A stretch of 64,000 nt of DNA, taken from positions 41,668-105,667 of the IMG/VR virus record IMGVR_UViG_2841729706_000003, one strand, 5' to 3'. The notes beneath the pieces are model-generated. The model worked only from the letters and a program-made list of their open reading frames with translations, had not been told where the DNA came from and did no database searches. The position numbers were made by a program, and so were the translations under genes. Shown piece by piece: positions 3,004 through 61,528 of this stretch (positions are counted from its first letter, which is position 1; the number at the start of each line of letters is the position of its first letter). The DNA comes from a virus (Duplodnaviria; Heunggongvirae; Uroviricota; Caudoviricetes).

Positions 3004-3007
3004 CCGG

Positions 3008-3283
3008 CTAGACCTTACTGTCAGCACCCGGCTTATCCCGCCACCTCTGGCCATAGGCGCGGCAGATCGCGTTCGCCTTGAACGTACACGGCACGCAGGC
3101 GTCTTTGCACCGCGAGTCGCATATCATTTCTATGACATCTTTATGAGTTGGCTTCGCGTCGGCCGTAAGTAATTTGAGGCCAACAAGATGAGCGGTGTCT
3201 GGTCCCAGAACTGCAGACTTTCTTTCGCGCCCACGCACGAGCAAAAGCTCGGCCAACTCAGTCAATGTCTCCCATTTCTTCAT
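3008..3283 (-). CDS. Hypothetical protein
   Basis: 91-aa ORF co-oriented with neighbouring prophage genes. Confidence 0.3.
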   Translation of the reverse strand: MKKWETLTELAELLLVRGRERKSAVLGPDTAHLVGLKLLTADAKPTHKDVIEMICDSRCKDACVPCTFKANAICRAYGQRWRDKPGADSKV

Positions 3284-4248: not shown

Positions 4249-4869
4249 TCATGCCCAACGCCCCAGTGCCTCATCAAGCTTGTCGTGCAGTTCCTCACGG
4301 CTGCCGTCATTCGTGACTATCAGATCGGCAATGAAGTTCGCGCGCTCGGACTCGTGGCTGCCCGATATCCCGCCTCGCCCGTCGAGCCGGTAGATGTCAC
4401 CGCCAAGCCGCCGGATTGTGGCCGCCTCATTCGGAAAGCGGCAATCATCGACGATCACACGTCCGCCGACTTCAATGATGGCCTCGACGCGCTGGCGCCA
4501 GATACCCACCCAGAAGTCCTCGCCCATGCAGTTTCTGCCCCATTCGGTGCCCAAGGTCTGCATGGCATGGCGCGGTGTCTTGCCCGCCAGGCGCACCGAC
4601 GGCGCTTCCTTCAGATCGCCCTCGATCTCGGCTTCGGTAAGGCCGACCGCGCGGAGCATATCTTTCAGGGGTGCCGCGAACTTCACAAGGGCGTATCCCT
4701 TGGACTGGAGGTAAGCCGCCGCGGTCGACTTCCCGCTCCCCGCAGCGCCACATAGGCCGACGATCTGGGGAAGATTGTCGTTGTCGGCCTTGCCGTGAGC
4801 GCGACATGGTGGTGTACGTTGGTCGGGTACTTCTTGGTGGCCCCAAGGGCTGTATGCAAGGGCGTTCAT
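4249..4869 (-). CDS. P-loop deoxynucleoside-monophosphate-kinase-like protein
   Basis: Walker A GLCGAAGSGKST near the N-terminus of the ORF taken from Met MNALAYSP, which has an upstream GGAGG SD. Overall resemblance to phage dNMP kinases is inference. Confidence 0.45.
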   Translation of the reverse strand: MNALAYSPWGHQEVPDQRTPPCRAHGKADNDNLPQIVGLCGAAGSGKSTAAAYLQSKGYALVKFAAPLKDMLRAVGLTEAEIEGDLKEAPSVRLAGKTPRHAMQTLGTEWGRNCMGEDFWVGIWRQRVEAIIEVGGRVIVDDCRFPNEAATIRRLGGDIYRLDGRGGISGSHESERANFIADLIVTNDGSREELHDKLDEALGRWA

Positions 4870-5046
4870 TTTTCCTCCGAAAGTGCACGGCGATACATGC
4901 GGTGCGCGGTGTAGTATGGGCACGACGCTGATTGGCCTATGGTGTGTGCTGCCGGGCGCCAGCCCAAGTGACTGTCGGTTAAGCACTGGTCGCCTGATGA
5001 ATAATCTCGCCCTCGGTCAGCATCCGATATCGGTTATCCCAAGCCA

Positions 5047-10684: not shown

Positions 10685-11547
10685 AGCGCTTCCTTGATGC
10701 GCTTGATCTCAACCCGGCCAGACATGACGAGCCACAGACCGATACCGCCGACGGCGAGCAACAGAGCCAAAGCCGCGAAGCCCCACGGCCCGCCAGTGAA
10801 CGCGGCAAGACCACCACTGGTTACAAGGCCGGAGCCGATCGCCATGAGCGACTTGCTCTCGCCTGCCGGAACGTCGTCGGGCTTAGCGGCCTCAGCCACG
10901 ACGTCTTTGGTCTTGACGTCTCGAGCCGCAACGATGCTATCGAGGAAGTTCTTGTAGTACCCGGCAATCAGAGTGGCCTTGTCAGTGCCGTTGACAATGG
11001 CGCGTGCACCAACGGGGTCCTCCTTGCCGGCGCCGAAATACTGGTCTAGGCGGGCGGTGGTGAACATACCCTTCGTCATGCCGTCGAAGAGAATGTGAAC
11101 CGCAGTTGCAAGCTCGAGCGCCTTTTCGGGATTGGCTTCAATACCGAATTTCCGGTAATTGTCGCGGAACGTGATCTGTGGCAGGCCACGACCCCGAAAA
11201 CGGTAGCCGTCCTCCTTCGTGTCGTTGCCTTGCCGACCGCCGTAAACCTTATTGGCAAGAGCGCGAGGATTGCGGGCGTATGGCTTTGCGGCGGCAACAG
11301 AAGCAAACCGAGTAGGCCAAACCTGCCTAATGCGCGCCGCCGAATAGTTGAGGTTTTCTTCGACAGGCTGCATCTTGCCGCCAGTCTCGTGGAATGCCGT
11401 CGCGAGCATGTAGGCCAAATGCTGGTCTGGCGTGCCGCGCTTGTAGGCTTCGGCAAGAATTGCCTCCATGCCGGCCACCTGGCTCGTCGAAAGACGGCCG
11501 CCAAAAGGCGCGCGCCTCGCATACGCGAAGAACGTTGTGTTGTTCAT
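10681..11547 (-). CDS. Endolysin, glycoside hydrolase family 19 (chitinase-like lysozyme) with C-terminal transmembrane anchor
   Basis: GH19 signature YRFRGRGLPQITFRDNYRKFG; C-terminal hydrophobic stretch AALALLLAVGGIGLWLVMSG. Confidence 0.55.
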   Translation of the reverse strand: MNNTTFFAYARRAPFGGRLSTSQVAGMEAILAEAYKRGTPDQHLAYMLATAFHETGGKMQPVEENLNYSAARIRQVWPTRFASVAAAKPYARNPRALANKVYGGRQGNDTKEDGYRFRGRGLPQITFRDNYRKFGIEANPEKALELATAVHILFDGMTKGMFTTARLDQYFGAGKEDPVGARAIVNGTDKATLIAGYYKNFLDSIVAARDVKTKDVVAEAAKPDDVPAGESKSLMAIGSGLVTSGGLAAFTGGPWGFAALALLLAVGGIGLWLVMSGRVEIKRIKEAL

Positions 11548-11637
11548 TATATCCTCTGGAATAGGAAAAAGCCGCCCAAAGCGACTGGACTTCAGACCGG
11601 AAACGAGTTTGTATTTCCGTGGCTTATGGGGGTGGGG

Positions 11638-12498
11638 ATGAAAATCAGGATTTTACTGACGGCTGCTGCCGCACTTCTGTCCAATTCGGCTTTCGCCGAG
11701 GACGCTTCCACTTTCGCTGGTTACTACGGTGGCGCTACTCTTCACCTAGGAAAAACCAAGGACGTCGCTTATGATGCCTGGTACGACCTCGGCGAAGGTT
11801 GGATCGACCGAAACTTTCAAATGGAAAAGCCAGCAGTCGGTCTATTCGGTGGATATAACCATGAAGTAAGCGGCTTTCTGGTTGGCATCGAAGCTTCGCT
11901 CCGGGCGGACACCAGTTCACAGGACACAGCGGCAACCGAATCCTACAAGACGAACTACGTGTGGCCTGACATCGGAGACGAGGTGAACGAACTCGTAACC
12001 AGCGGTGAAACTGGCGTGGCCAAAATAGACATAGGGCCGTACCGAGCAGGAACCACCACCAAATCGTGGACAGATTACAGAGAAACCGCTTCACCCATGA
12101 TCTCAGCGCGCGTCGGAGCAGCTTTTGGTGACGTCATGATTTATGGAAGGGGTGGTCTTGGTGCGTCAGTGCTTTCCGTCCGCAGGCACACAACATCAAC
12201 GGACACCAATTGCCTCGCCGGAATTACTGAGGTGGAATATTCACCACTCCATGCCTCATGGGGGCAGCCAACCTGCGTGGCCACCTCTTTGTCAGAAAGC
12301 GCGACGGCAACAAGCAAAACGTCTCGAGTGGCACCGAGCGTGTCAGCTGCAATTGGCGCGGAGTACAACTACGGAAAATACTTTGCTCGGGCCGAGGCCG
12401 AAGTCAGCCACATCTACTGGGGCAGCGACTTATTCCCAAATGGTGACTCTGGCGCCACCAAGTATCAGCTAGGTCTAGGAGTGGGCATCCGCTTCTAG
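11638..12498 (+). CDS. Outer-membrane beta-barrel protein (OmpA-like/Omp25-type porin family), signal-peptide-bearing; lysogenic-conversion candidate
   Basis: Start MKIRILLTAAAALLSNSAFA (signal peptide); alternating amphipathic beta-strand pattern; C-terminal ...GLGVGIRF ending in Phe; opposite strand to the flanking lysis and tail genes. Confidence 0.55.
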   Translation: MKIRILLTAAAALLSNSAFAEDASTFAGYYGGATLHLGKTKDVAYDAWYDLGEGWIDRNFQMEKPAVGLFGGYNHEVSGFLVGIEASLRADTSSQDTAATESYKTNYVWPDIGDEVNELVTSGETGVAKIDIGPYRAGTTTKSWTDYRETASPMISARVGAAFGDVMIYGRGGLGASVLSVRRHTTSTDTNCLAGITEVEYSPLHASWGQPTCVATSLSESATATSKTSRVAPSVSAAIGAEYNYGKYFARAEAEVSHIYWGSDLFPNGDSGATKYQLGLGVGIRF

Positions 12499-27932: not shown

Positions 27933-29191
27933 GCGGCGTCAGCCTCATTGTCGTCGTCAGGGGTGTTGTCGTTTGCAGGCGGATCTGGTGGCTGTGTTCC
28001 AAGCACCACCGTCGCGCCCTGCATGAACAGTTCTTCGGCAGCAGCATTCTTGTGCTTACCGCGGTTCTCCAGCGCGCGTCCCTCATTCGGGGTGAGGAAG
28101 CCGGCCTGGATGCCGCGTGCGATGCCATCGATTCGGCTCTTGAAGTCGCCCCGCATGAGACCGTCTAGATTGTGCTCGATGTAGCGGGATGATCCGCCAC
28201 GCCCGAAGAACTTCAGGTTCAATTCATCTTCCAGCGCCTTGGCCCACTGGCCGATAAGGTGCTTCACGAGATGAAGATCTTGCTGCTCGGCGTTACTAAA
28301 CGTGGCCCGCGACAAGTCCTGCAGAAACACAGGTGGCAACTGATAGGCACGAGAGATTTCCTCGACCTGAAAGCGCCGCGCCTCAATCATCTGGCCTTTG
28401 GCAGGATCGAAGCCGACGGGCTTCAACTCGTATCCGCCAGGAATCGGCGTGATGGGCTTGCCGGTAGCTTTAGCGTTATCGATTGCCGCGGTAACGTCCG
28501 CCAGCGCGCGCTTCATTGCCTCCGCGCCAGCAGGTAGAGGACCAACAAGCGCTAGTGGCGGAACGCCTCCGCCAGCAAAGAAGTTGCTGCCGTAATCATT
28601 CATAGCTATGGCAAGTTGAATTGCCTTTGCCGCCATATTGATTGGGCCGTAGTGGCTCAATCCGTCCGATTTCAGCATAAACGGCACGTCGATCACGTCA
28701 GCAGCCTGATAGGTCTTACCTTCAGACTGATATGTGACGCGACCCGCCGTGCGTTTGACCGTAGTCTTCTTCGGATCAAGCGCCCAAAGGGCTTCGACGC
28801 CCTGCGGAGTCCGCTCTATCCAGGCAAGGCCGCGGCCGCCAGTGAACACCTGTTGCCAGAAATGCTGCCAGAACTTGAACGACCCGGCTGCATCATTAGG
28901 AGCAACATTGACAACAGTTTCTAACTTGCCCCCCGCCCTCTTCGCACCTTCCTTCGTGTCTCGGTAGGCATGGCGTGGAATTGCCGCCAGTGTTCGAGAC
29001 ATGAAAGCGACAGCCGCCCACACGGCTGGAACCGTCAGAGCACTGTCGATGGTTACATTCGCGAGGGTTGCACCGTTTAAACCGAAGAAAGATAGAAAAT
29101 TCTCGGAACTCACCGGAATCGTCGGATTTTCAATGGTTTCAGCGCGAGTTTCCACGCTTTCTTCCGGTTTAGCCCGGCTAAATGGCCACAT
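27929..29191 (-). CDS. Portal protein, HK97 family
   Basis: 420 aa; ...WQHFWQQVFTGGRGLAWIER...; gene order terminase-portal-protease-capsid. Confidence 0.7.
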   Translation of the reverse strand: MWPFSRAKPEESVETRAETIENPTIPVSSENFLSFFGLNGATLANVTIDSALTVPAVWAAVAFMSRTLAAIPRHAYRDTKEGAKRAGGKLETVVNVAPNDAAGSFKFWQHFWQQVFTGGRGLAWIERTPQGVEALWALDPKKTTVKRTAGRVTYQSEGKTYQAADVIDVPFMLKSDGLSHYGPINMAAKAIQLAIAMNDYGSNFFAGGGVPPLALVGPLPAGAEAMKRALADVTAAIDNAKATGKPITPIPGGYELKPVGFDPAKGQMIEARRFQVEEISRAYQLPPVFLQDLSRATFSNAEQQDLHLVKHLIGQWAKALEDELNLKFFGRGGSSRYIEHNLDGLMRGDFKSRIDGIARGIQAGFLTPNEGRALENRGKHKNAAAEELFMQGATVVLGTQPPDPPANDNTPDDDNEADAA

Positions 29192-31092
29192 TATTGGGCT
29201 CCAATTTTCGTCAGGCTAAATTCAGGGTCGTTCCAAGGGGAAGACTGTGCTGTTACAGTCGGCTTGTCAGCCGCGGCGCCAACCGCCATTGCCAAAGCAA
29301 CGGCCGCGTCGATGCGTACCGACGCCCTTGTCTTGACGAACCATCGATTGCCATGCGGGTCTGGCGGATGATTGAAAGTCGATCCCATGAGGGCCGTCAT
29401 CAACACCGGATTTGAGCGAAGCCGAATACGACCGTCGACAATCAAATCCTCGAGCGCTGTCACCGACCCCGGCATCCAAAGCCCCAACGGAGGCTTTTCG
29501 CCGGCAGCTTTCGCCGCTTCAATCTTCTCTTCAGAAGGTCGCGCCCTCACCTTACCGCCTTGCGGGTGTGGAAGCTGTTCGGCCGTCACTTCGAAGATAT
29601 CGAGTTCATCTTTGAATGCTGCGTAGGCATAGTTATCGTAGGCGATCGACTGGATGTCGTAGAGCCTATCCAACTCGGCAACACGCGCCGCAACGATGTC
29701 GAACCGAATACGCTTCCCTTCGGGGGCGTTTAGGTACTTGTCCCGTACCCACACGTCGTATGGTTGCTTGTCGGCCGTAACTCGGGCTGCAAGCGTATCG
29801 CCAGGCGTCCACGCCTCGATCCATGCGTCGTATGTCGGCAGGTCAGCGGTTTCACCGTCCTCGCGCGTGACTGTAATGAAGCCAGTCGGCTGGACGCACG
29901 CTACAACAGTCATGTCCTTCGTGCCGGAAAGGTCGACGCCGAGATAGAGCGGGCCGCCTTCCGGCAAGGCCCATTCCGACATGACCTGCTCAACTGTCGC
30001 GCGAGGCATCCATGCCTTGTCGGCGTCAGTCCACACGCAGAAGTGCAGGCGCAGAACGTTGTTTAGCTTGCCGGGAACATCGCGCGCTTCCGCCACAACG
30101 CCCGCCAAGTAATCATGCGTCAGGATCGTGCCGAGGAGCGGGTTTGCCTTGGCCCAGCACGACGGATCCGTCATCGGATCGTCGCCCTTGTCTAGGGCGC
30201 AGACATAAGCAAAGACACTGTCGCTGCCTTCCCAGGTCTCGCCAACGAAAGTGAACTCTTCGTCTGGAGTCTGAGTGCCAGCCAAAACCTTGACCGCTCG
30301 CTCCCGCTCTTCCCAGCAAACGCTGTTTCGATCCGAACCGGAGTTCGTAATCATCAAGAGCAGGGGATTCTGGCGGAATTTGAAGCCGCGCTGCAGCATC
30401 TCCATGATGCTGCGGTCGGGGTGCTCGTGCACCTCGTCGCAAAGTGCAAAATGCGGTCTCGGGCCGGAGCCGGTCTTGCCGGCTTCCTTGGATATCGGCC
30501 GAAAGAACGATCCCGACTTGTGGTGGGCAATGTTGAACTCTTTGCCCAATCCACCGCTGAACTTTACGCGTGACTCGATCGCCGGAGCCTGTCGAACCAT
30601 CTTGCACGCATCCTGAAACAGGATTTGCGCCTGGTCTTTCTTGGCCGCGGCGGCATAAATCTGCGCGCCAGATTCCTTATCGGCGGTTAGACCGTAGAGC
30701 CCTACACCACCTGCGAACGGTGACTTCCCGTTCCCTTTGCCTTCCTCGATGTAGACCGTGCGAAAACGGCGTGTACCGTCCGCCTTCTTCCATCCGAAGA
30801 TCGAACCCAGCTTGAACGCCTGAGACGGGTGCAGCTTGAACGGCTTGCCATCGAACTGACCCTCGCTAAGACGAAGACGCTCCTCAAAGAACCGAAAAAC
30901 CCGGTTCGCGGCGTCGTCATCCCAGTATAGCCCTCGCTCGTGCCCGCGCTCCAAATCGGCGAAGTGCCGTCGGCAAGCGTTGCGCACGTGTGGGCCGGCA
31001 ATCTCATTTCCGTCTAATACCGCTTGCGCATAAGCATTGACGCGCCGCAGCGCCACCTCAGTCGAGGAGGTCGTCTTTGTCGTCCTCGTCAT
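29191..31092 (-). CDS. Terminase large subunit
   Basis: Walker A-like IEEGKGNGKSPFAGG, ATPase N-domain plus nuclease C-domain architecture; start taken at Met MTRTTKTT. Confidence 0.7.
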   Translation of the reverse strand: MTRTTKTTSSTEVALRRVNAYAQAVLDGNEIAGPHVRNACRRHFADLERGHERGLYWDDDAANRVFRFFEERLRLSEGQFDGKPFKLHPSQAFKLGSIFGWKKADGTRRFRTVYIEEGKGNGKSPFAGGVGLYGLTADKESGAQIYAAAAKKDQAQILFQDACKMVRQAPAIESRVKFSGGLGKEFNIAHHKSGSFFRPISKEAGKTGSGPRPHFALCDEVHEHPDRSIMEMLQRGFKFRQNPLLLMITNSGSDRNSVCWEERERAVKVLAGTQTPDEEFTFVGETWEGSDSVFAYVCALDKGDDPMTDPSCWAKANPLLGTILTHDYLAGVVAEARDVPGKLNNVLRLHFCVWTDADKAWMPRATVEQVMSEWALPEGGPLYLGVDLSGTKDMTVVACVQPTGFITVTREDGETADLPTYDAWIEAWTPGDTLAARVTADKQPYDVWVRDKYLNAPEGKRIRFDIVAARVAELDRLYDIQSIAYDNYAYAAFKDELDIFEVTAEQLPHPQGGKVRARPSEEKIEAAKAAGEKPPLGLWMPGSVTALEDLIVDGRIRLRSNPVLMTALMGSTFNHPPDPHGNRWFVKTRASVRIDAAVALAMAVGAAADKPTVTAQSSPWNDPEFSLTKIGAQ

Positions 31093-31444
31093 CAGGCACC
31101 GTGATTTTGCTGGCGTCGGACGGAGTTGCACCCATCTGGCCGAGGACTTGTCGGAGAAAGTTCATTCTCTGAACGCCAACCTCTTGGCCTGCCATAATCG
31201 CGCCCTGCACATGTGAGGCCATACCGACCAGCATCCGGTGCGATTGCGTCAGCCAGGGAATTTCTTTCTGGAAAAGCAGCCAGGCAGACTTCGCCTTGCT
31301 GGCGTCGGTGTCGACAAGCCACTTAGGCGGGGCGCCGAGAGGGCCGTTTGCCTTGGGCTCCACGCGCTTTTTGAAGCGCCCGGCGTTCATCTTGTCGCGA
31401 CCCTCGACTTTTGCCTTGCCGAGGGGATTTCTCGGCCTAGCCAT
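31058..31444 (-). CDS. Terminase small subunit (P27-like)
   Basis: 128-aa basic protein MARPRNPLGKAKVEGRDK... immediately upstream of the large subunit. Confidence 0.45.
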   Translation of the reverse strand: MARPRNPLGKAKVEGRDKMNAGRFKKRVEPKANGPLGAPPKWLVDTDASKAKSAWLLFQKEIPWLTQSHRMLVGMASHVQGAIMAGQEVGVQRMNFLRQVLGQMGATPSDASKITVPDDEDDKDDLLD

Positions 31445-32167: not shown

Positions 32168-33514
32168 CTATTCGGATTTCGGTGTGGAATTGACATCATG
32201 AAGAAGTCTCCTCGCCGTGTGGAATCTAGCGTGGCAGTTTGCGCAAACACGCATCACCGAACCCGTCGTGGGATCGGTATGGCGGGACAGCGGAAACCAG
32301 TCTGGGAACACTCCCAAGCAACTTTCGCACAGCACCAGCGGCTTGCTCGTAATGGGCTTTTGAAGCAGGGCCTTGGCTCGGATGCGATCAAAACTGTAAC
32401 CGCGTCCTGCTCGGTTGAAGTCCTTCACGAGCCTGTTTCGTGCTTCGGTGTATGCGTTGGTGAAGCGGTGATCGAAGTAGTTGAATACCTCGGTTCGCCA
32501 GTTCTCGACCGTGGCCGCCAGCGCGTCAAACTCCAACCGAACCGTGTCGGGGATCGACGCCTTCCACTCGTCAAACCGTCGTTCTGCGTCGGCTCGGTCC
32601 GTTGCCTCCCAGATGGAATAGAACCCTTCCTTGGCCGTCCATCCGTCCTTGAGCAACGGGTTGTTGTCGAGCATGCCGTCAAGCATCAGTCGCCTCATCG
32701 GAGACAGCTTCGACGGGCGGATGTGCATCAGCAATCGGCCGCGGTGCGGGTTCTTCCGCATCTTTCCCTTCGCGCCCTTGCGGAACCTGCTTCGGACGAG
32801 GTCGAGCTTCTCATTCGCCTTGCTGACGACGTGCCACTTGTCGGTGACGACGATGGCGTTCGGCAGCAGCTCTCTGGCGACTTCGGCGTACGGTCCCCAC
32901 ATGTCGATGGTCACGATCCGAACACGCTCGCGACCAGGCATCCACGACAGCCAGTGGTTGACGGCAGGCTTCGCCATGGAGTCGATCATGTCCAGCAGAC
33001 GGCGGTTGGCAACGTCCACGAACACAGTCCGCTTCCGCTTCCGAATGGTCAGCTCGTCGATGCCCAGGATGATGACGGGCTCCCGAAGGTTTGCGCCGAC
33101 GGCCATCTGAACATGCTCGTCGCAGATGTTCCGAACCGTCTTCTCGTCCACATCAACATGCCGGGCAACAGCGCTGTAGGTCTGCATGATGCCCTGTTCG
33201 ACGATGTAGTCCGTGAGCCGCTTCGTCATGCGGCGGTTGCTGTCCATCGCTGGCAGCTCCTGCATGGAAGTCTCCCCGCACTCCCGGCATTTGTACCGCG
33301 CGACTTCGGCGCGGATGATCAGCGGCTGGCCGAAAGTCGGGATGTCCCGGTAGTTCACGAGCTTCTTGCCGTGCTTGTACAATCGGTCGACCGATCCGCA
33401 TTTCGGGCAGTCCCGAGCGTCGGTGTCGTAGGTCGCCTCAGCGACGGTTTCGTTCTGTTGGCGGTCAAGGACGTGCACGGTCCAGCCCTCCAACCACAGC
33501 GCGTTGTTTGCCAT
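32168..33514 (-). CDS. ISL3-family DDE transposase
   Basis: N-terminal double zinc-finger CPKCGS...H...RYKCRECGETSMQELP plus HTH and DDE region, typical of zf-ISL3/DDE_Tnp_ISL3. Confidence 0.65.
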   Translation of the reverse strand: MANNALWLEGWTVHVLDRQQNETVAEATYDTDARDCPKCGSVDRLYKHGKKLVNYRDIPTFGQPLIIRAEVARYKCRECGETSMQELPAMDSNRRMTKRLTDYIVEQGIMQTYSAVARHVDVDEKTVRNICDEHVQMAVGANLREPVIILGIDELTIRKRKRTVFVDVANRRLLDMIDSMAKPAVNHWLSWMPGRERVRIVTIDMWGPYAEVARELLPNAIVVTDKWHVVSKANEKLDLVRSRFRKGAKGKMRKNPHRGRLLMHIRPSKLSPMRRLMLDGMLDNNPLLKDGWTAKEGFYSIWEATDRADAERRFDEWKASIPDTVRLEFDALAATVENWRTEVFNYFDHRFTNAYTEARNRLVKDFNRAGRGYSFDRIRAKALLQKPITSKPLVLCESCLGVFPDWFPLSRHTDPTTGSVMRVCANCHARFHTARRLLHDVNSTPKSE

Positions 33515-33568
33515 GCTTGCCCCTCAATCGAGGCGAGTCATACCGGAAACGGAATATCGTGTGGAGTC

Positions 33569-34045
33569 TCATGGGCGCTCCATAATCAAAAGGCCGCCCT
33601 TGGTCAGTCCACAACGCCGCCATCCAGCGGCCACAAAGCAGAAGCCCGGATTGCGGCTCCTGACTGCTTTCGAATTGACGTAGGTGTAGTGCCTTTCACC
33701 AGGCCAGCAGTGATCAGCGATTGCGTCAGCCTGTCGGATAAGGTCGGACGCGAGGTTCGGACTCTCGTTCCTGAAGACGGCGCAGTTGATCCCTTGCTCT
33801 CCGCTGGCATCGATGAACTTGCGCCAGACGAACATAGCGTCTCCATCTCCGGTTCGAAGAACGATCTTCTCCCCAGGTCCAGCGAACAGCACGCGCTTGC
33901 GGCCGTCTCGGTATCGATAGCACGAGTAATGGCGTTCATAGAGGTCCAAACAGGTCCGGTCGCCATCCTTGGTGAGGTACCACAGAGGCTCCGTCACAAG
34001 CATCCCTTTCCACACTATAATCCGAAACGGAGCATAGCATGTCAT
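33569..34045 (-). CDS. Hypothetical protein (passenger ORF inside the IS, upstream of the transposase)
   Basis: 158-aa ORF lying inside the terminal inverted repeats. Confidence 0.35.
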   Translation of the reverse strand: MTCYAPFRIIVWKGMLVTEPLWYLTKDGDRTCLDLYERHYSCYRYRDGRKRVLFAGPGEKIVLRTGDGDAMFVWRKFIDASGEQGINCAVFRNESPNLASDLIRQADAIADHCWPGERHYTYVNSKAVRSRNPGFCFVAAGWRRCGLTKGGLLIMERP

Positions 34046-34311
34046 GGCCTACTTTCCACACGAAAATCCGAATACCCGAATAGTACGGGAAAGAAAACCG
34101 ATCATCGGAAGATGCTCCCCAAGGACGGGGACACCTTGTCCCGCACCGACTGCCAATACAGTCGGGCATGGCCAGTTACAGCATCACATGCGAGCACAGC
34201 ATCGCACTGACGCAATAGTGAAAGCTTTGCATTCATGCCTTGTCTCCTCAAACAAAATGGCCAACGCACTCGGCGCCTATGTCAGACGTTGCTACGTTGG
34301 CGGGTCGTAAT

Positions 34312-34386
34312 TGGTCAGGATGGCCGGACTCGAACCGGCGTTCCGAGCTTCCAAAGCTCAGCGATTAGCCACCATCTTCCACCCTG
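34312..34386 (-). tRNA. tRNA-Pro (anticodon UGG), phage-encoded, 3' CCA encoded
   Basis: Cloverleaf by eye: acceptor CAGGGTG/CATCCTG (one G-U pair), anticodon stem TGAGC/GCTCG with loop TTTGGAA (U33, UGG, A37), T-arm GCCGG-TTCGAGT-CCGGC, discriminator A, CCA. Atypical G8 and a weak D-stem. Confidence 0.5.
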
Positions 34387-39695: not shown

Positions 39696-39742
39696 CAGTG
39701 TGTATTGTGTATAAGTGTGTATATCAACTAAGGACTTCGAAA

Positions 39743-39952
39743 ATGGCCCCGAAACGCAACCCCATGAAGCCCCGCGAAATCGTCAAGATGCTCCGCGCGG
39801 ACGGATGGGAGATTAAGCGTAAGGGTCCGGGGGATCATGTGCAGTACGCGCACCCCACTAAGCCCGGTAAGGTCACGGTGGACATGGGCGTCACGGAATT
39901 TCCGACTAAGACGCTTAAGTCGATCTTCACACAGGCGGGATGGGACTGGTAA
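39743..39952 (+). CDS. hicA: HicA toxin (mRNA interferase)
   Basis: KPREIVKMLRADGWEIKRKGPGDHVQYAHPTKPGKVTV matches the HicA/YcfA G-x-H-x4-HP signature. Confidence 0.6.
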   Translation: MAPKRNPMKPREIVKMLRADGWEIKRKGPGDHVQYAHPTKPGKVTVDMGVTEFPTKTLKSIFTQAGWDW

Positions 39953-39989: not shown

Positions 39990-40517
39990 ATGCCATTGGC
40001 TTATGCTCTCATTCACGAGGAAGGTGGCAGTTTTGGAATCTCGTTTCCGGATTTTCCTGGCTGCATCTCTGGCGGGTCTACGGCCGAAGAGGCAATCAGG
40101 CGCGGGAGCGAGGCGCTAAGTTTCCATGCGGCTGGAATGGTCGAGGACGGCGATGCGCTTCCAATGCTGCGGTCTCTTAGCGAACTTCAAAGCGATGCTG
40201 CATTTTCGGAAATGGCGCGTGACGGTGTCCTTGCTATGGTACCGTTCGAAATTCCCGGCAAGTCGGTTCGAATCAACATCTCCATGGACGAACATCTAAT
40301 CGAGATGATCGACCGAGCCGCGGCGGCATCCGGAAAGAGCCGATCAGGGTTTCTTGCCCATGCCGCCAGATCGACCCTCACGCTTGGTGATGTAAGCAAT
40401 GAGGTGATCAAGTCGGGCGGATCGTCTCGCACAACTATAGTTCGCGATGCAACAAGTGGAAAATTCGAGACCATCAGCCCTCGGTCAAAACGCGTTGCGG
40501 AAAAAAAGAAGGCTTAG
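39990..40517 (+). CDS. hicB: HicB antitoxin (N-terminal UPF0150 fold plus C-terminal ribbon-helix-helix)
   Basis: MPLAYALIHEEGGSFGISFPDFPGCISGGSTAEEAIRRGSEAL plus C-terminal RINISMDEHLIEMIDRAAAASGKSRSGFLAHAAR. Confidence 0.6.
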   Translation: MPLAYALIHEEGGSFGISFPDFPGCISGGSTAEEAIRRGSEALSFHAAGMVEDGDALPMLRSLSELQSDAAFSEMARDGVLAMVPFEIPGKSVRINISMDEHLIEMIDRAAAASGKSRSGFLAHAARSTLTLGDVSNEVIKSGGSSRTTIVRDATSGKFETISPRSKRVAEKKKA

Positions 40518-43160: not shown

Positions 43161-43210
43161 GTCTTCTCCTCAGTGGTGACCCGCTTGGTAGACGGGTTGT
43201 GGTGTGGTGG

Positions 43211-44323
43211 TTAGGCTACCCAACGTGCGCCGTGCAATGCGCGGCTTTCGTCGACCTTCGTCTGGCTGGTGGTGTTTGCAGCGATGCGAGCGCGGATGAC
43301 TTCGCGCGCCTCTTGGCCTGCGCGGACCATGAAGGCAGGTGACCGTAGATCAACAGGCAAGCGTGGGATGGCCTGAAGCGCAAAGTCTTTCTGTGGGAGA
43401 TTACTGTTCGCTGCCACGAAGTCGGCAAGGTCGTCGGCTCGACGCTTCACACCAGCCTCAACCGATGCCGCATATTCTCGCGCCGCATCGGCGTCAGCTT
43501 CATCAAGCAGCGGCAAGACGTCATCCAGGCCACCTGACAGAACAAGCGCTAGGATGTTCTTTTCCTGCAATATACTGTCTTTGGCGCGGTGTTTCAGAAC
43601 ATAGTCTTCGCCCTTTGCCTTAACCATCGTGCCGTCCTCGAATCGGACAACAAATCCCTCGGCGCCCTGTATTGCTCTGGCGTAGGCGAGGAATTCTGTG
43701 GCTGTGGTGTGTTGGGGCGTGTGGTGCTCGACCAAATCAATGCACGATTCACGAGAGAATGCCCATTGGAGTGAAGTTGGCAGATACTCGCCAGACGCGT
43801 TCTTTCGGATGGCAAGAAGAGTAAGGTCACTACGATCGTAGCGAACCACAATGCGGTTATCCGGAGCCGTCCACTCAAAGATTGGTGTCGCGCCGGCCTC
43901 CAACATGGCGTGACAGGCGTTTCGAAGCTTGGAAGTGATATGCCGCTCCGCCCTAACCGCATGATCGGTTCGCCCCATGCGCGTCATGAAGACCACTTCG
44001 CCATTGACGATCGCAGGATGGATCATCGAGCCGTCAAGCTTCTCCATGATTGTGTGCGGCCGACTGAAATCCAGAACATGAGGCTGCGTTTCTGGCCGCT
44101 CTCCGACGTTGAAGAATTTGTGAAACGGGCGAGCCAAAATTCTGCCATCGGGCGCAAACTTGATGCCGCGGCATTCTAACCGAGCCGGGTGGTCGAAGCT
44201 GTCAGGCAACGCGTAAACGTAGTCGATGACAGTGTAATCGCCCTTGTCGGCGACTACGAACTCCTGCCTGCCGTCGAGGTGCGGAAGAACATCGTCAATG
44301 TGGTTGATGCGGAAGTGGGTCAT
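43211..44323 (-). CDS. RNA ligase, Rnl1-like nucleotidyltransferase
   Basis: Motif I MEKLDGSM (KxDG), motif IV EGFVVRFEDG, motif V VLKHRAKD; about 370 aa from Met MTHFRINH; overlaps the end of the kinase-phosphatase gene. Confidence 0.55.
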   Translation of the reverse strand: MTHFRINHIDDVLPHLDGRQEFVVADKGDYTVIDYVYALPDSFDHPARLECRGIKFAPDGRILARPFHKFFNVGERPETQPHVLDFSRPHTIMEKLDGSMIHPAIVNGEVVFMTRMGRTDHAVRAERHITSKLRNACHAMLEAGATPIFEWTAPDNRIVVRYDRSDLTLLAIRKNASGEYLPTSLQWAFSRESCIDLVEHHTPQHTTATEFLAYARAIQGAEGFVVRFEDGTMVKAKGEDYVLKHRAKDSILQEKNILALVLSGGLDDVLPLLDEADADAAREYAASVEAGVKRRADDLADFVAANSNLPQKDFALQAIPRLPVDLRSPAFMVRAGQEAREVIRARIAANTTSQTKVDESRALHGARWVA

Positions 44324-45255
44324 GCAGCCTCTCTCCACTCGCCAACGCGCATATCCACGACCGAAACATTCGGCAGGCCATCACCCGCAAGAATGTCACG
44401 CAAGGCGGACTGCATGCGCTCGTGGTGCACTTCGACCAGCGTCTTATCGCCGATCAACACTTCGTTGCGCCAGCCAGCCGTCGCCTTCTTGTCGGCAAGC
44501 GGTCGATCGACAACAACATAGGAAATGGCAGAACCGACTGGCGCCAGCGACACGCACGCCAAACGGTCCCGCCTGCGAAGGTTGGTGGCGTCGATGCATA
44601 CCGAAAGCCCGCTATCGAGCCGAGCCTTTGCGATTCGATGCAGGGCAGTGAAAACGTCTTCGTTTCGCGACTGGTCTTGAAAATTGCCAGTATATTCGGC
44701 ACGGAGATCGTCGCTCGAAATGTATCCTGGCAAGCCCTTAGCGTATTTGGTCTTGCCCGCTCCGCTCGGACCCACCATCAAGGTCAAGAGCGAGCCGTCA
44801 TGAACAGGCGGAATTATCCGCCCTTCGTCCTCCCAGTTGGCGACAACCTGAAAGCAGGGAATCCCTTCTGCCCGCCACATATCGACCACGCGCTGCCGAT
44901 CGTCGTAAACGAGGTCAGGCCGCCCGTGTTCCTGCGACAACCAGTAGCGCTTCAGAACAGCGTCTGGCGTGCTGTCTCCTGCTGCCCGCATGTGCTGCAG
45001 GTAGCAAGGGTCAATGCCCATATCGGAAAGCCAGTTTTCGGTTTCGGCTCGAACGACGTCGCTGCGGGCCGACCAAATGCGAACTTTGTGGCCAGCGCGG
45101 AGGTGTGCGTGAAACGTCTCGATGACGTGAGAAACGCCACGATCAAAGACGCATTCACGGAAGAACGCCGCCCAATCTTTCTTGCCGCCGCGGACGTGGT
45201 GCACGCGATGGCCGATATCGGCAATAGTGCCGTCTAAGTCAAAAATGACGAACAC
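44320..45255 (-). CDS. Polynucleotide 3'-phosphatase / 5'-kinase (Pnkp) with HAD phosphatase N-terminal and P-loop kinase C-terminal
   Basis: HAD motif I FDLDGT, motif IV VYDDRQRVV, and Walker A GPSGAGKT in the C-terminal half; GTG start after CACCACCTGAGGAG. Confidence 0.6.
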   Translation of the reverse strand: MFVIFDLDGTIADIGHRVHHVRGGKKDWAAFFRECVFDRGVSHVIETFHAHLRAGHKVRIWSARSDVVRAETENWLSDMGIDPCYLQHMRAAGDSTPDAVLKRYWLSQEHGRPDLVYDDRQRVVDMWRAEGIPCFQVVANWEDEGRIIPPVHDGSLLTLMVGPSGAGKTKYAKGLPGYISSDDLRAEYTGNFQDQSRNEDVFTALHRIAKARLDSGLSVCIDATNLRRRDRLACVSLAPVGSAISYVVVDRPLADKKATAGWRNEVLIGDKTLVEVHHERMQSALRDILAGDGLPNVSVVDMRVGEWREAA

Positions 45256-45402
45256 GCTAAATCTCCTCAGGTGGTGAATCCGGATTGGTAGTCCGAATTT
45301 GTTAGATTTGTTATCTTTGTTGGATTCGTAGCGTCAAGTCAAGCGCTGGCCTGCCTTTTGCCGAGAAAAGAATAGGGACACACCGTTTGTTACAACAGCA
45401 GG

Positions 45403-56820: not shown

Positions 56821-56959
56821 TGCCTCTTTAACAAATCTGTCGGAACCAACTCCTTCGTACAACGTTAACCGTAGCTACAAAGATTAGATTCGTTTGTAGA
56901 TGTCAACCCTTTGATTTGGTAGACACCCTGTGGATAACATTGTAAGATTGGTTAAGTGA

Positions 56960-57700
56960 TTGAGGGATAAGACGAATATGAGACGAATTACCCCGGCAAA
57001 AAAATCTCGCTTCGTGCAGATGCTGGAAAACGCCATAGAGGCGGAGGGCGGAAGCCAGAAAGCATTTGCGGAGAAGCACGATATTGGCCAGCAGACGCTA
57101 AACACATGGATAGTCAGCGGTCGCGTCCCCACGAAGCAGTTCCACCAAAGGCTCCGCGACGTCCTGAAAATCACGCAGGATCAGTTAGACGAACTGCTGG
57201 CCGAAGTGGAAAACAGGCGCGCTGCCGCCTATGAAGCATCCGTTGCGCAAGAGCCGCCCAACGGCAGGATAGCCGGCGGCAAGATGCCTGAAAACCGGGA
57301 CAATAGCGTACCGGTTCTAGGGCGTGCCGTAGGCGGAGAGCTCGGCGAATACGAGTTCAACGGCGAGGCGTTGGATTGGGTAATGCGTCCGCCTTCATTG
57401 GCCGGCGTTGGCGACGCCTACGCGGTCTTCGTCGACGGCGAGTCTATGGTACCGCGCTATCGCCCTGGCGAAACAGTATGGGTCCACCCTCACCGCCCTG
57501 CGCGCAAGGGTGATGACGTTGTTGTCCAACTGCACCGGCTAGACGACAGCCATGAGCCGCCATACGGATACATCAAGGAATTCGTTGGTTGGACGTCGAA
57601 CAAGCTCATTCTGCAGCAGCACAATCCGTCAAAGAAGATCGAATTTGATCGCGAATCGGTGAAGTCAGTAGACACCATCGTGTTCGCAGAGCGTGTCTGA
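56960..57700 (+). CDS. cI-like repressor (HTH plus S24 LexA-like autopeptidase)
   Basis: N-terminal HTH ...QKAFAEKHDIGQQTLNTWI...; C-terminal GESMVPRY (Ser nucleophile) and ...IKEFVGW... (Lys) S24 motifs. Confidence 0.65.
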   Translation: MRDKTNMRRITPAKKSRFVQMLENAIEAEGGSQKAFAEKHDIGQQTLNTWIVSGRVPTKQFHQRLRDVLKITQDQLDELLAEVENRRAAAYEASVAQEPPNGRIAGGKMPENRDNSVPVLGRAVGGELGEYEFNGEALDWVMRPPSLAGVGDAYAVFVDGESMVPRYRPGETVWVHPHRPARKGDDVVVQLHRLDDSHEPPYGYIKEFVGWTSNKLILQQHNPSKKIEFDRESVKSVDTIVFAERV

Positions 57701-57796
57701 ATTCACCAGTCGTACAAATCTAACAAATCGTTGTTGACTTTGTCGAGTTGGTAGCATACAAATCTCCTCACCAAACCACCACCGAGGAGATTCGAA

Positions 57797-59380: not shown

Positions 59381-60649
59381 GTGGGCACGTTGGGCTTGGT
59401 TCCAGATCAGCTATTCGAGGTGGTTGTGATGACAATAGATGCCCTGAGAGAGGCCGAGCGGTTCCTTGCATACTTCGCTGGCGAGACAGGCGGCAGTTTC
59501 GAAGGACCAGGCACACCAAAAACTGCGCTCGCCAAGGTTAGAGAAGCCCTTCGCACCCAACCGGCAGAGGCCGGGGTGACGGTGAAGGCGCTGGAGTGGG
59601 ACGAACACAACTGCGCCGATGTGTATGGAGTCAAGGATTGCCACGGACAGGGTCCGAAGCGTTACTTTCTGTACCGCGCGTCCACAATCATCGGTTGGTT
59701 TGACGGCATCGACGCCGCCAAAGCCGCCGCACAGGCTGATTACGAGCGACGGGTCCGTTCCGCTCTTGTCCCCACCCCCGCCCCACAGGGGATGGATACG
59801 GCGGTGGAGGCAGCCGAGGCCGCAGTTTATCCACGCCACGAAAAGGGCTTCCTCGTTAAGCCTCTCTTGGACGCAATCGACATGCGCGCCGCACTCACCG
59901 CAGCCTACCCCCATATGACAGGGGCAGCGCAGGAGGCGGTGGAGGGTGAGCCGGTAGAATGGCAAAGAGAAGCCGGCGACTTCGGCTGGCAGCGTGTCTC
60001 ACCAGACGATTTGGAGCACTACCGCTCAAAGGGTGCGCGTCTTCGCGCCCTCTACACCACCCCGCAGCCCGCGCCATCCAGCGCGGATGCCGGAATGCTG
60101 GCGGCGTTGAAGGAAGAGAACGAGCGGCTTACGAAGGAGCGTGATGCTGCACGACAGTCGCTTGAGCATGACCGTGCGGTGGTCATCACTGCTTCCAATG
60201 AGTTCAATGACGCGTTTGCCCGCCGTTCATGGCTACTCGACAGTCGCGGGCCGTACGAATGGGGTGACGACCGCTACAGAGATGAGTTCCGTGGCGCTTA
60301 CGATGAACTCGCAGCACCCATGTCGAAGCTTCGCAAGATCGGAGCAGATTGGGCGAACTGCCCTGTCGATCACGATGAAATCATGCGTTCGCGACAGAAC
60401 TGGCAGGAGCGCGCGGAAAAATCAGAAGCAGCCCTCGCCGTTGCCTCCGCCTCCCCGGTGCAGCCCGAAGCGGAGGGGTGGAAGACGATGGACAGCGCGC
60501 CGAAGGATGGGACGCGTGTTCTGGTCTATGAGATAGGGAGACCGGTCGAGGTCGCACACTACAACCCAAAATCTTGGCAATGGTCGAATAGGTATCGTCC
60601 GGTCAGATGGCGGCCTCTCCCCGCCGCCCCTAAGCAGGGAGGCGAATAG
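59381..60649 (+). CDS. Hypothetical protein with C-terminal DUF551-like domain
   Basis: C-terminal GWKTMDSAPKDGTRVLVYEIG...WRPLP resembles the DUF551 phage domain (from memory); probable start at Met MTIDALREAERF. Confidence 0.4.
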   Translation: MGTLGLVPDQLFEVVVMTIDALREAERFLAYFAGETGGSFEGPGTPKTALAKVREALRTQPAEAGVTVKALEWDEHNCADVYGVKDCHGQGPKRYFLYRASTIIGWFDGIDAAKAAAQADYERRVRSALVPTPAPQGMDTAVEAAEAAVYPRHEKGFLVKPLLDAIDMRAALTAAYPHMTGAAQEAVEGEPVEWQREAGDFGWQRVSPDDLEHYRSKGARLRALYTTPQPAPSSADAGMLAALKEENERLTKERDAARQSLEHDRAVVITASNEFNDAFARRSWLLDSRGPYEWGDDRYRDEFRGAYDELAAPMSKLRKIGADWANCPVDHDEIMRSRQNWQERAEKSEAALAVASASPVQPEAEGWKTMDSAPKDGTRVLVYEIGRPVEVAHYNPKSWQWSNRYRPVRWRPLPAAPKQGGE

Positions 60650-61528
60650 ATGGGTGCGCCGTCAAACTTCATATTGCCCGATGGTAATGTGCAGATTGCG
60701 TTCTCAGGCGGTCGCACGTCCGGGAAGATGTTGCACGACATCATCCAGGCGAACCAACCCTGGCCCGCCGATCGGGTGAAGGTGGTTTTCACTAACACCG
60801 GCAAGGAGCGCAGTGAAACGCTCGATTTTGTGCGTGAGTGCGAAGAGCGATGGGGGGTTCCCATCGTCTGGCTTGAATATCGCCTGCGCTGGACTGGCGC
60901 GCCGCACGACCCGAAGAACAAGATTTTCGATACGGGAGCGCACAGCTTTGAGGTTGTTTCCTATGAGACGGCTAGCAGGAATGGCGAGCCGTTCGAACAG
61001 ATCATCGAATACTTCGGGTTCCTGCCGAACCGGGTTGCAGATTTCTGTTCTCACAACCTGAAGAGCCGTACTGCAAGGCGCTACTGTGTGGCGTCAGGTT
61101 GGAAACACTGGACAACCGCGATAGGCATCCGTGCCGACGAGCCAAAGCGCATCCTGAAGAAGCAGCCAAAGGAGCGCTACCGCGTTTGGTATCCGCTCAA
61201 TGAGGCTGGCGACACCAAACACGATGTCTCCCTCTTCTGGCTCTTCCAGCCCTTCGATCTCGAATTACTGAACATCGACGGCGTGACCCCAACCGGCAAT
61301 TGCGACGGCTGCTTTAAGAAGTCCGAGCGGAAGCGTGCCGAGTTTGCTCGCAGCGAGTGGCACCACGCCGAATGGTGGTCCGCTCAGGAACGGAAATACG
61401 GCGGAACCTTCGACAAAACTACGTCATGGGACCAACTGCACGAGTACATCAGCAAACAAGGCGACTGGCTTTTCGGGGACAACGACGCCCTCTGTCAGCG
61501 CGACGGCGGGGAGTGCGCACCATGGTAA
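60650..61528 (+). CDS. PAPS-reductase-like (phosphoadenosine phosphosulfate reductase family) protein
   Basis: N-terminal PP-loop-like IAFSGGRTSG and overall length typical of phage PAPS-reductase-like proteins. Confidence 0.5.
   Translation: MGAPSNFILPDGNVQIAFSGGRTSGKMLHDIIQANQPWPADRVKVVFTNTGKERSETLDFVRECEERWGVPIVWLEYRLRWTGAPHDPKNKIFDTGAHSFEVVSYETASRNGEPFEQIIEYFGFLPNRVADFCSHNLKSRTARRYCVASGWKHWTTAIGIRADEPKRILKKQPKERYRVWYPLNEAGDTKHDVSLFWLFQPFDLELLNIDGVTPTGNCDGCFKKSERKRAEFARSEWHHAEWWSAQERKYGGTFDKTTSWDQLHEYISKQGDWLFGDNDALCQRDGGECAPW

Follow-up and report, generated by a model that had tools for sequence, protein, structure and literature searches.

What is the function of the two overlapping, leftward-transcribed genes that lie among the replication genes of a Mesorhizobium prophage, and do they constitute a phage system for the repair of broken RNA? 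The genes are carried in a 64,000-nucleotide stretch of tailed-phage DNA (Caudoviricetes; IMG/VR record IMGVR_UViG_2841729706_000003, positions 41,668 to 105,667), referred to here as the window, which is part of a prophage of Mesorhizobium sp. DCY119 and thus of a temperate phage. An initial annotation made from the sequence described them as genes for an RNA ligase and for a two-domain end-healing enzyme with phosphatase and kinase activities (Pnkp), and the listing of open reading frames (ORFs) indeed contains two long minus-strand ORFs within 43211-45255. The enzymatic assignment can be made with considerable confidence. On the whole the genes probably form a coupled RNA heal-and-seal cassette that the early/replication operon holds as an accessory cargo and that is used in counter-defence; the counter-defence role, taken by itself, is only slightly favoured.

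The downstream gene encodes a 370-residue protein that its sequence places in the Rnl1 family. It matches the Pfam family RNA_lig_T4_1 (PF09511) with an E-value of 6.6e-27 (95.2 bits relative to a cut-off of 28.3), PHROG 562 across residues 26-356 (2.8e-73), and the sequences of the T4 Rnl1 crystal structures (2c5u; 1.7e-26). The AlphaFold model has a predicted local distance difference test (pLDDT) score of 86.4, and its best Foldseek match is T4 Rnl1 2c5u over the full length (E 1.3e-20, 379 columns, template modelling (TM) score 0.59), followed by the ligase domains of the fungal tRNA ligase Trl1 at about 1e-10. Identity as an ATP-dependent DNA ligase is ruled out, as PF09511 and T4 Rnl1 dominate the matches and DNA ligases align to the model only at about 1e-5 or weaker; profiles, searches of solved structures, predicted fold and invariant catalytic residues all agree with the RNA ligase named in the initial annotation. 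The score with NCBIfam TIGR02308, the T4 RnlA equivalog, is 137.6 bits (cut-off 242.25) and covers residues 29-280 only, and the protein is thus better described as a member of the Rnl1 family than as an equivalog of T4 RnlA.

Alignment with T4 Rnl1 places the adenylylation lysine (motif I, EKLDGS) at K95 in the 370-residue numbering, motif III at E150, motif IV (EGFVV) at E222/G223, and motif V (VKAKGE) at K235/K237, aligned to T4 K240/K242. The KxDG and EGFVV motifs had been located correctly from the sequence, but the proposed motif V, KHRAK, is nine residues too far downstream of VKAKGE. Mutational studies of T4 Rnl1 have identified R54, K75, F77, G102 and K119 as essential residues specific to Rnl1, and their counterparts here are R52, K69, F71, G98 and R115, the last with Arg replacing Lys. 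All of these catalytic residues are invariant in an alignment of 25 homologs. The model ends in an all-helical domain (Table 1) that is included in the full-length structural alignment to T4 Rnl1, although it resembles the T4 domain by predicted fold only and the relative orientation of the two ligase domains is uncertain. The C-terminal domain of T4 Rnl1 is thought to confer its preference for tRNA.

The upstream gene encodes a 311-residue protein with the HAD motif FDLDGT at residues 5-10 and the P-loop GPSGAGKT at residues 162-169, in domains joined by a linker of which residues 139-146 are predicted to be disordered. Pfam HAD_PNKP (PF25109) matches residues 3-138 (2.4e-21) and AAA_33 matches residues 157-264 (2.5e-15). 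Two profiles had been expected from the motifs; AAA_33 was recovered, but PNK3P falls below threshold (E 0.083, 13 bits relative to a cut-off of 22) with HAD_PNKP matching in its place, and there is no FHA domain. The best PDB sequence match to the HAD half is Capnocytophaga Pnkp1 (5.5e-11), with the T4 Pnkp phosphatase at about 1e-8 to 2e-9, and this half of the AlphaFold model superposes on the T4 phosphatase 5uj0 with a TM score of 0.77 (Foldseek). The kinase half is related most closely to the kinase of Clostridium thermocellum Pnkp (CthPnk, 4jst), both by sequence (4.9e-6) and by fold (E 1e-8, TM 0.70), and it matches the N-terminal kinase region of NCBIfam bacter_Pnkp (TIGR04075; 1.5e-14, profile positions 10-155 of 851), with a score of 53 bits relative to a cut-off of 750 and no Metallophos domain anywhere in the protein. 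Its similarity to the T4 kinase domain is not significant (phmmer i-Evalue 280), and in the fold search T4 Pnkp 1ltq aligns to the model through its HAD domain only. The pLDDT of the model is 86.2, and its predicted TM score is low (0.54), so that the relative orientation of the domains is not fixed.

These matches portray the 311-residue protein, by sequence and predicted structure, as a chimera in which a T4-type phosphatase is followed by a bacterial-Pnkp-type kinase. Because the kinase half belongs to the CthPnk clade and not to that of T4, the protein was apparently assembled by an independent fusion and not by permutation of T4 Pnkp; circular permutation is ruled out by both sequence and fold, and the earlier description as a 'domain-swapped Pnkp' is misleading. 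The more general proposal of a bifunctional phosphatase-then-kinase end-healing protein is well founded, in that profiles, structures, folds and invariant residues agree. The order of the domains is indeed the reverse of that in T4, but it is not unprecedented, as eukaryotic PNKP and bacterial HD-Pnk share it (PMC1997131). As a flexible linker connects the domains, their order is probably neutral for the mechanism.

The catalytic residues of both domains can be mapped onto characterized enzymes. In the phosphatase, D6, D8, S62, K102 and D118/D119 correspond to T4 D165, D167, S211, K258 and D277/D278, which provide the nucleophile, acid-base, phosphate-contact and Mg2+ ligand functions of T4 Pnkp (PMC3592404); D6 is the predicted nucleophile and D8 the predicted acid-base. 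In the kinase, S164, K168, T169, D182, R185, Q195 and D222/T224 correspond to CthPnk S17, K21, S22, D38, R41, Q51 and D78/T80, of which Lys21, Asp38 and Arg41 are essential for catalysis (PMC3902929), and the acceptor-site pair D182/R185 also aligns with T4 D35/R38. Alignments of 22 and 30 homologs, with identities down to 44%, show no variation at the mapped residues, except that S164 is nearly invariant and T169 is either Ser or Thr. The CthPnk lid arginines R116, R120 and R123 have no confident counterparts, and R251 and R263 are invariant candidates.

These same residues bear on the possibility that the C-terminal P-loop domain phosphorylates a small molecule or nucleotide, and that the protein is an enzyme of nucleotide metabolism that is merely a neighbour of the ligase. 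AAA_33 is a generic family and there are weaker fold matches to gluconate, shikimate and APS kinases, but this explanation is hardly credible when CthPnk is the best match by sequence and by fold, the Asp182/Arg185 acceptor pair is invariant and the N-terminal domain is of a PNKP-specific HAD family; the obligatory pairing with Rnl1 and a natural fusion to it (both described below) also point to a polynucleotide substrate. Assignment of the kinase half to deoxynucleoside monophosphate (dNMP) kinases or zeta-toxin-like kinases is ruled out on the grounds of the CthPnk match and the invariant Asp/Arg pair, and the second protein is thus not the unrelated HAD or dNMP kinase that had been raised as the alternative. 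The window does contain a separate dNMP-kinase-like gene at 4249-4986 (minus strand; Pfam DNMK 3.9e-11).

The two genes are closely juxtaposed. The ligase ORF could begin with a GTG at 44338 to give a 375-residue product (43211-44338), but the ATG at 44323 is the better start, because NCBI calls the 100% identical protein P0121 of Mesorhizobium sp. DCY119 at 370 residues and homologs begin MTH...; the 311-residue protein is similarly 100% identical to NCBI protein P0001 of the same strain. The genes do overlap, as noted initially, but the extent is 4 nt with the ATG start and not the 19 nt given by the GTG. The same ...GCATGA... junction is present in six related loci with 64-77% protein identity (L006, L008, L009, L129, L130 and L131), and independent gene calls also give 4-nt overlaps. 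From the ATGA junction, its recurrence in what are seven loci including the window, and these gene calls, we predict that the pair is translationally coupled.

Comparison with related loci shows that the Pnkp-like gene and Rnl1 form a conserved unit. Loci were gathered by an alignment-based search with Pnkp; single-sequence searches of genome and viral contigs gave only one and two loci, respectively. The ligase gene is downstream in all 16 fused HAD-kinase loci on contigs of up to 82,927 bases, usually at a distance of 0-300 nt (2.2 kb in L013). An Rnl1 homolog is found in the flanks of only 8 of 64 stand-alone HAD loci, and there is no ligase in the flanks of the three jumbo-phage loci (CcrBL9, which is present twice, and CcrSC). 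When the search is seeded with the ligase, the fused gene is immediately upstream in 10 of 12 close relatives, and the two exceptions are a locus that begins at a contig end and L087, which has the ligase alone. The fused gene is also kept upstream in six distant loci in which the ligase is about 40-49% identical (L094, L095, L097, L098, L102 and L104, with L098 being the contig already counted as L017). Where other sequences separate the two genes in relatives, they consist of HNH endonuclease genes, ORFs of unrelated kinds or a DNA ligase gene, and no conserved third partner (Hen1, RlaP or 2H phosphoesterase) was found between or beside the two genes in the related loci.

The top 150 matches in an exhaustive search of 1.84 billion cluster representatives have E <=1e-30, and 107 of them are collinear and full-length, about 300-345 residues long and with the HAD domain first; the HAD-kinase architecture therefore defines a sizeable family. 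One metagenomic cluster representative of 761 residues (P0390) has HAD (3-142), kinase (160-287) and RNA_lig_T4_1 (400-612) domains in a single chain, in which the catalytic motifs are all intact and some 35 residues form a proline-rich linker. This would be a natural trifunctional heal-and-seal enzyme, although it may be an assembly artefact.

There are further variations on these architectures. Two proteins, P0376 (417 residues) and P0388 (426 residues), have a kinase of the same clade behind an N-terminal calcineurin-like metallophosphoesterase, an order that is the reverse of that in CthPnkp and in a Sinorhizobium phage Phosso protein (kinase first). In L105, L106 and L111-L119 the Rnl1 matches either end near query residue 184-186 or consist of about 350 residues spread over some 1.5 kb (L114 and L115), which suggests that these ligase genes contain an insertion (intein, intron or homing endonuclease).

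The cassette is both accessory and mobile. It lies in a long operon, read leftward, whose other products are SPFH, AAA_24 ATPase, HNH endonuclease and VWA proteins, beta clamp, Cas4-type exonuclease and SF2 helicase on one side and Gp157, N6/N4 DNA methylase, DUF6511 protein and primase-polymerase on the other, such that the cassette is between the helicase and Gp157. The earlier placement of the genes in the replication module is thus correct, and their description as early genes follows from this position and not from observed expression. Eight relatives identified through the helicase (61-74% identity) share the order of clamp, exonuclease, helicase, ..., DUF6511 and primase, but in seven of these neither Pnkp nor Rnl is present within 7 kb. 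The site of insertion varies as well. The cassette follows the helicase in the window and in L006, L009, L013 and L131, is between the exonuclease and the helicase in L011, L012, L014 and L129, and has unrelated flanks in other carriers, several of which have unrelated backbones. The slot can be occupied by other cargo, such as the coiled-coil protein and HNH/AP2 homing endonuclease between helicase and Gp157 in L123, or, next to the helicase in L129 and L130, a gene for a protein with a Gad2 domain, a family that takes its name from an anti-Gabija protein. It is these four features, the absence of the cassette near the helicase in seven of eight relatives, the varying insertion site, the unrelated backbones and the other cargo, that mark it as accessory and mobile, and the pattern is typical of counter-defence cargo and not of core replication functions. 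The GC content of the cassette, both overall and at third codon positions (GC3), is that of its neighbours, and there is no compositional sign of recent acquisition.

The related phage L129 has additional genes of note. At 2842-3977 and 10914-11696 there are genes for an Rv2179c-like 3'-5' exoribonuclease, a 199-residue RNA-ligase-family protein (PF09414) and the Gad2-domain protein beside the helicase, and cargo for RNA processing and anti-defence appears to accumulate in this region.

The location within a replication module raises the possibility that the cassette acts on DNA, restoring 3'-OH and 5'-phosphate ends at nicks or breaks generated by phage replication or host nucleases in the course of replication, recombination or repair, with sealing by this or another ligase. 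Its neighbours include the Cas4-type exonuclease, beta clamp and primase-polymerase as well as the SF2 helicase and Gp157, and the distant viral contigs L102 (5049-5924) and L104 (5057-5935) have a T7-like ATP-dependent DNA ligase of 291-292 residues (SPKYDGIRA) between Pnkp and Rnl1. Moreover, eukaryotic PNKP and Deinococcus radiodurans HD-Pnk, which have the same domain order, are linked to DNA repair (PMC1997131). We nonetheless regard DNA end processing as unlikely. The ligase belongs firmly with the RNA ligases of the Rnl1/Trl1 clade, and its fold matches to DNA ligases are far weaker; the travelling partner of Pnkp is always Rnl1 and never a DNA ligase alone; and the lack of the cassette near the helicase in seven of eight close relatives is not expected of a core replication function.

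The preferred explanation is the repair of damaged RNA, for which a plausible scenario is as follows. During lytic growth, RNA, most plausibly in a tRNA anticodon loop, would be cut by a metal-independent ribonuclease to leave a 2',3'-cyclic-phosphate end and a 5'-OH end. In the HAD domain Asp6 would attack the terminal phosphate to form a covalent aspartyl-phosphate, with Asp8 as acid-base and Mg2+ bound by Asp6 and Asp119, so as to convert the 2',3'-cyclic-phosphate or 3'-phosphate to a 3'-OH/2'-OH end. The kinase domain would then transfer the gamma-phosphate of a nucleoside triphosphate (NTP) to the 5'-OH, using Lys168 and Mg2+ on the phosphates, Asp182 as the general base and Arg185 to orient Asp182, and the ligase, adenylylated on Lys95, would pass AMP to the 5'-phosphate and seal the break. 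The outcome would be to neutralise an RNA-cleaving defence of the host or of a competitor, as T4 Pnkp and Rnl1 do against PrrC. We favour this account of RNA-damage repair as a lytic counter-defence because the end-healing enzyme is in a fixed pairing with an RNA ligase and in P0390 is fused to it in a single chain, and because the cassette behaves as an accessory and mobile unit.

Several observations weigh against this account. No RNA-cleaving defence was found by PADLOC among the ten unannotated neighbour proteins, the only PADLOC hit in the window being an SspD/PAPS-reductase-like protein at 60650-61528. The cassette lies inside a DNA replication module and, as described above, a DNA ligase gene separates the two genes in L102 and L104. 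The ligase scores below the cut-off of the T4 RnlA equivalog, and its sequence similarity to T4 ends near residue 278, beyond which there is no detectable similarity in the C-terminal domain. DNA ends are likewise substrates in vitro for T4-type HAD phosphatases and for CthPnk, and homology does not fix the class of substrate. Finally, we found no biochemical or genetic data on any member of the family in the literature.

Damaged RNA could also be repaired for the benefit of the lysogen, in which case the prophage would express the cassette and so shield host tRNAs or mRNAs from ribotoxins, such as the bacteriocin or contact-dependent tRNases of competitors, host toxin-antitoxin RNases, or the HicA of the prophage itself. 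Genes for hicA (39698-39952) and hicB (39990-40517) are present on the plus strand (Pfam 1.3e-14 and 4.1e-27), 3.3 kb from the cassette and in the opposite orientation to it, inside the leftward operon between the primase-polymerase and DUF6511 genes. In L087 (4994-9956) a 64%-identical Rnl1-type ligase is found alone, with no Pnkp within 6 kb, between CI-like repressor and integrase genes, a position typical of prophage-expressed genes and of lysogenic conversion, and a tandem TAACAAAT(C) motif upstream of Pnkp recurs on both sides of the CI-like repressor gene of the window. This explanation is improbable too, in that the cassette is co-directional with the replication operon, which diverges from the repressor gene and should be silent in a lysogen, and the gap upstream of Pnkp contains no promoter that exceeds chance. 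A HicB-like gene accompanies the cassette in only one other phage, a Consotaella prophage seen as L131 (14779-14936) and L090, where its position is similar to that in the window, and a functional linkage to hicAB is not supported.

The prophage also encodes a tRNA-Pro(UGG) at 34312-34386, and the cassette might therefore serve, for example, to mature, splice or circularise phage transcripts or this tRNA and not to repair damage; heal-and-seal enzymes act in fungal and plant tRNA splicing (Trl1; PMC10946426). Such a processing role is very unlikely. The tRNA gene is 8.8 kb from the cassette, where it neighbours an ISL3 transposase, and is without an intron according to ARAGORN; none of 21 related loci has a tRNA gene within 6 kb of the cassette, and the presence of the cassette varies among close relatives. 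A link with phage tRNA genes is thus not supported. The initial annotation had put the tRNA and HicA next to the pair and argued from them for an RNA-damage arms race, but neither the distances (8.8 kb and 3.3 kb) nor their distribution in relatives sustains the argument.

Returning to counter-defence, the closest parallel is the Pnkp (PseT) and Rnl1 (gp63) pair with which phage T4 counters PrrC (PMC3592404, PMC9703825). The two systems have the same three predicted chemistries (DxDxT HAD 2',3'-phosphatase, P-loop 5'-kinase and Rnl1-family ligase), the HAD domain and ligase are true homologs, and both are phage-encoded and accessory. The Mesorhizobium protein differs in its reversed domain order and its kinase of a non-T4 clade, and the Mesorhizobium genes are adjacent, apparently translationally coupled, and in a temperate, alphaproteobacterial phage. 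CthPnkp, of the Clostridium thermocellum Pnkp-Hen1 system, has the closest solved relative of the kinase, with equivalents of K21, S22, D38, R41 and Q51 all kept. It runs, however, as kinase, metallophosphoesterase and ligase in one chain with a Hen1 methyltransferase partner, whereas the Mesorhizobium protein has an N-terminal HAD phosphatase, a C-terminal kinase and a separate Rnl1-type ligase, and no Hen1-like methyltransferase was seen among the annotated neighbours of the cassette. The Capnocytophaga gingivalis Pnkp1-Rnl5-Hen1 system (4xrp/4xru) similarly has a HAD domain and a separate healing enzyme and ligase, but Pnkp1 has the kinase first (as in T4), the ligase is not of the Rnl1 type and Hen1 is included.

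Other enzymes share the domain order. Eukaryotic PNKP (mouse/human; 1yj5, 3zvn) has a HAD phosphatase followed by a P-loop kinase and Foldseek aligns it across both domains, but the overall TM score is about 0.3 and the PNK3P match is insignificant, the Mesorhizobium protein is without its FHA domain, and PNKP has a role in DNA repair and no dedicated RNA ligase partner. HD-Pnk, of the D. radiodurans DRB0098 type, has an N-terminal phosphoesterase and a C-terminal kinase, and its gene is beside that of an ATP-dependent ligase (PMC1997131); it differs in having an HD and not a HAD domain, a ligase of another family, and a chromosomal and not a phage location.

The only cultured phages among 50,697 phage records with full-length collinear homologs are Caulobacter jumbo phages, with 11 such records (Bertelyvirus: CcrBL9 gp184c, CcrSC, C1, C2 and others; 42-44% identity, 96% coverage), in which the protein is already labelled '3'-phosphatase, 5'-polynucleotide kinase' in GenBank. 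They also encode a 45%-identical Rnl1, but its gene is uncoupled from that of the end-healing protein and at a distance of about 35 kb from it, and these are lytic phages whose genomes exceed 300 kb. Phosso, a rhizobial jumbo phage of Sinorhizobium, has a kinase of the same clade (42% identity) that comes first and is fused to a metallophosphatase. Fungal and plant Trl1, the second-best structural match to the ligase model, resembles P0390 in having three activities in a single chain; its order, however, is ligase, kinase and 2H cyclic phosphodiesterase and it leaves a 2'-phosphate, whereas the order here is HAD phosphatase, kinase and ligase.

What is new here is the chimeric origin of the end-healing enzyme and the behaviour of the cassette, the domain order being less unusual than was claimed. 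The healing and sealing of RNA is the classic means by which phages respond to defences that cut tRNA, and immunity directed at tRNA (PrrC, RloC, PARIS, retron effectors and OLD-family nucleases) is now recognised as widespread. The phosphatase-then-kinase order was known from bacterial HD-Pnk and eukaryotic PNKP (PMC1997131), and the pair is certainly present in a temperate prophage, but novelty cannot be claimed for a temperate host, as kinase and RNA ligase pairs have been reported in the temperate Bacillus tyroviruses (PMC9703825) and mycobacteriophage LeBron (PMC13148394). We found no description in the literature of a HAD-then-CthPnk-type kinase chimera or of its fixed pairing with Rnl1 in Hyphomicrobiales prophages, although the 2016 survey of Burroughs and Aravind may list the architecture. 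The cassette shows that the end-healing enzyme has been assembled more than once from interchangeable parts, and the chimera travels as a fixed unit with Rnl1 among the temperate phages that infect nitrogen-fixing bacteria and related bacteria of the soil. We found no report of an RNA-cleaving defence tied to phage resistance in those bacteria, and the cassette points to particular rhizobial prophages whose deletion or comparison may uncover such defences. It also offers enzymologists a compact kinase-phosphatase and ligase pair, together with the single-chain P0390. We view the cassette as a genuine though modest departure from a phage counter-defence system that is already known, and it overturns no current view.

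The sequences flanking the cassette in relatives may bear on its mobility. In L006, L007 and L013 Pnkp is preceded by an element, cTTGACAAATTTGTAAAA, followed by a TAxxxT-type hexamer, and in L007 and L013 the element recurs immediately after the ligase stop codon such that it brackets the cassette. The element contains a perfect palindrome, ACAAATTTGT, over a -35-like hexamer, heads successive short units downstream of the helicase, and also marks the region in relatives that lack the cassette (Table 1). The cassette in several relatives therefore looks like a promoter-led unit, and the repeated elements could serve as recombination points for its gain or loss. Neither this element nor the conserved promoter-like palindrome of the relatives (TTGACAAATTTGTAA) is in the window, and a generic scan for promoters and terminators around the cassette gave nothing exceeding chance.

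A more speculative proposal, which we offer tentatively and as a single package, is that the HAD-kinase/Rnl1 pair serves temperate Hyphomicrobiales phages as a self-contained counter-defence module that moves horizontally and is directed at a rhizobial RNA-cleaving immune system that is not yet described, and that in some relatives the pair is a promoter-led unit bracketed by copies of one conserved promoter/operator element. If so, otherwise near-identical prophages that differ in having or lacking the cassette could be used as bait for finding the nuclease, and the chimeric enzyme would differ from T4 Pnkp, for example in its use of NTP donors or its acceptor preference.

Table 1. Positions of the cassette, its subregions and associated features. 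Positions without a locus designation are those of the window.
Feature	Position	Strand	Evidence or remark
End-healing enzyme (Pnkp) gene, 311 aa	44320..45255	-	GTG start at 45255, TGA stop 44320-44322
HAD (DxDxT) phosphatase domain, residues 1-138	44842..45255	-	PF25109 2.4e-21; T4/Pnkp1 matches
Inter-domain linker, residues 139-156	44788..44841	-	AlphaFold pLDDT <50 at 139-146; variable and gapped in homolog alignment
P-loop polynucleotide 5'-kinase domain (predicted), residues 157-311	44323..44787	-	AAA_33, bacter_Pnkp, CthPnk 4jst
ATGA overlap, Pnkp stop TGA / ligase start ATG	44320..44323	-	Sequence read
T4 Rnl1-family ATP-dependent RNA ligase gene (predicted), 370 aa	43211..44323	-	PF09511, PHROG 562, T4 Rnl1 matches
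All-helical C-terminal domain of ligase, ~residues 251-370	43214..43573	-	AlphaFold helices 254-364, pLDDT mostly 80-97
Shine-Dalgarno-like GAGGAG, 7 nt upstream of Pnkp GTG	45263..45268	-	Sequence read
147-nt gap, helicase stop to Pnkp start	45256..45402	-	TTGACT/TTGACG hexamers; tandem TAACAAAT(C) 45297-45313
Large terminase gene	29191-31131		Tail genes also present
CI-like S24 repressor gene	56960-57700		
cTTGACAAATTTGTAAAA element sites	L006 5744/5908; L007 3663/5789; L013 5572/10220; L121 7411/7562; L122 8794/8945; L123 9626; L125 9675; L126 8696		

The gap between the helicase and Pnkp genes in the window may be a regulatory region. In addition to the tandem copies within it (minus strand), the TAACAAAT(C) motif is present once on either side of the repressor gene, at 56829-56836 and 57721-57728 (both plus strand), and there are more ACAAATC copies beside a TTGACT promoter-like site near 57740. 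Exact 8-mers of the motif number four relative to 0.66 expected, a count reached in 1 of 100 shuffles, and the motif may be an operator. The ribosome binding site contexts of the Pnkp gene (45260-45280, minus strand; CACCACCTGAGGAGA) and of the Gp157 gene that directly follows the cassette (43165-43185, minus strand; CACCACTGAGGAGA) are nearly identical, and similar CACCAC...GAGGAG leaders are found in L006, L007 and L009.

Among the other features of the prophage, we note that the ISL3-family transposase gene (32168-33514, minus strand) lies between the terminase region and tRNA-Pro(UGG), and its insertion may have disrupted the prophage. A 670-residue antisense ORF (32198-34210, plus strand) overlaps the transposase gene and is probably spurious. 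The PAPS-reductase-like protein encoded on the plus strand at 60650-61528 matches PHROG 424 (1.2e-39) as well as PADLOC SspD (4e-12); its gene is preceded by an unannotated 422-residue ORF (59381-60649, plus strand), and the two could constitute an IbrA/IbrB-like or DNA-modification-related module.

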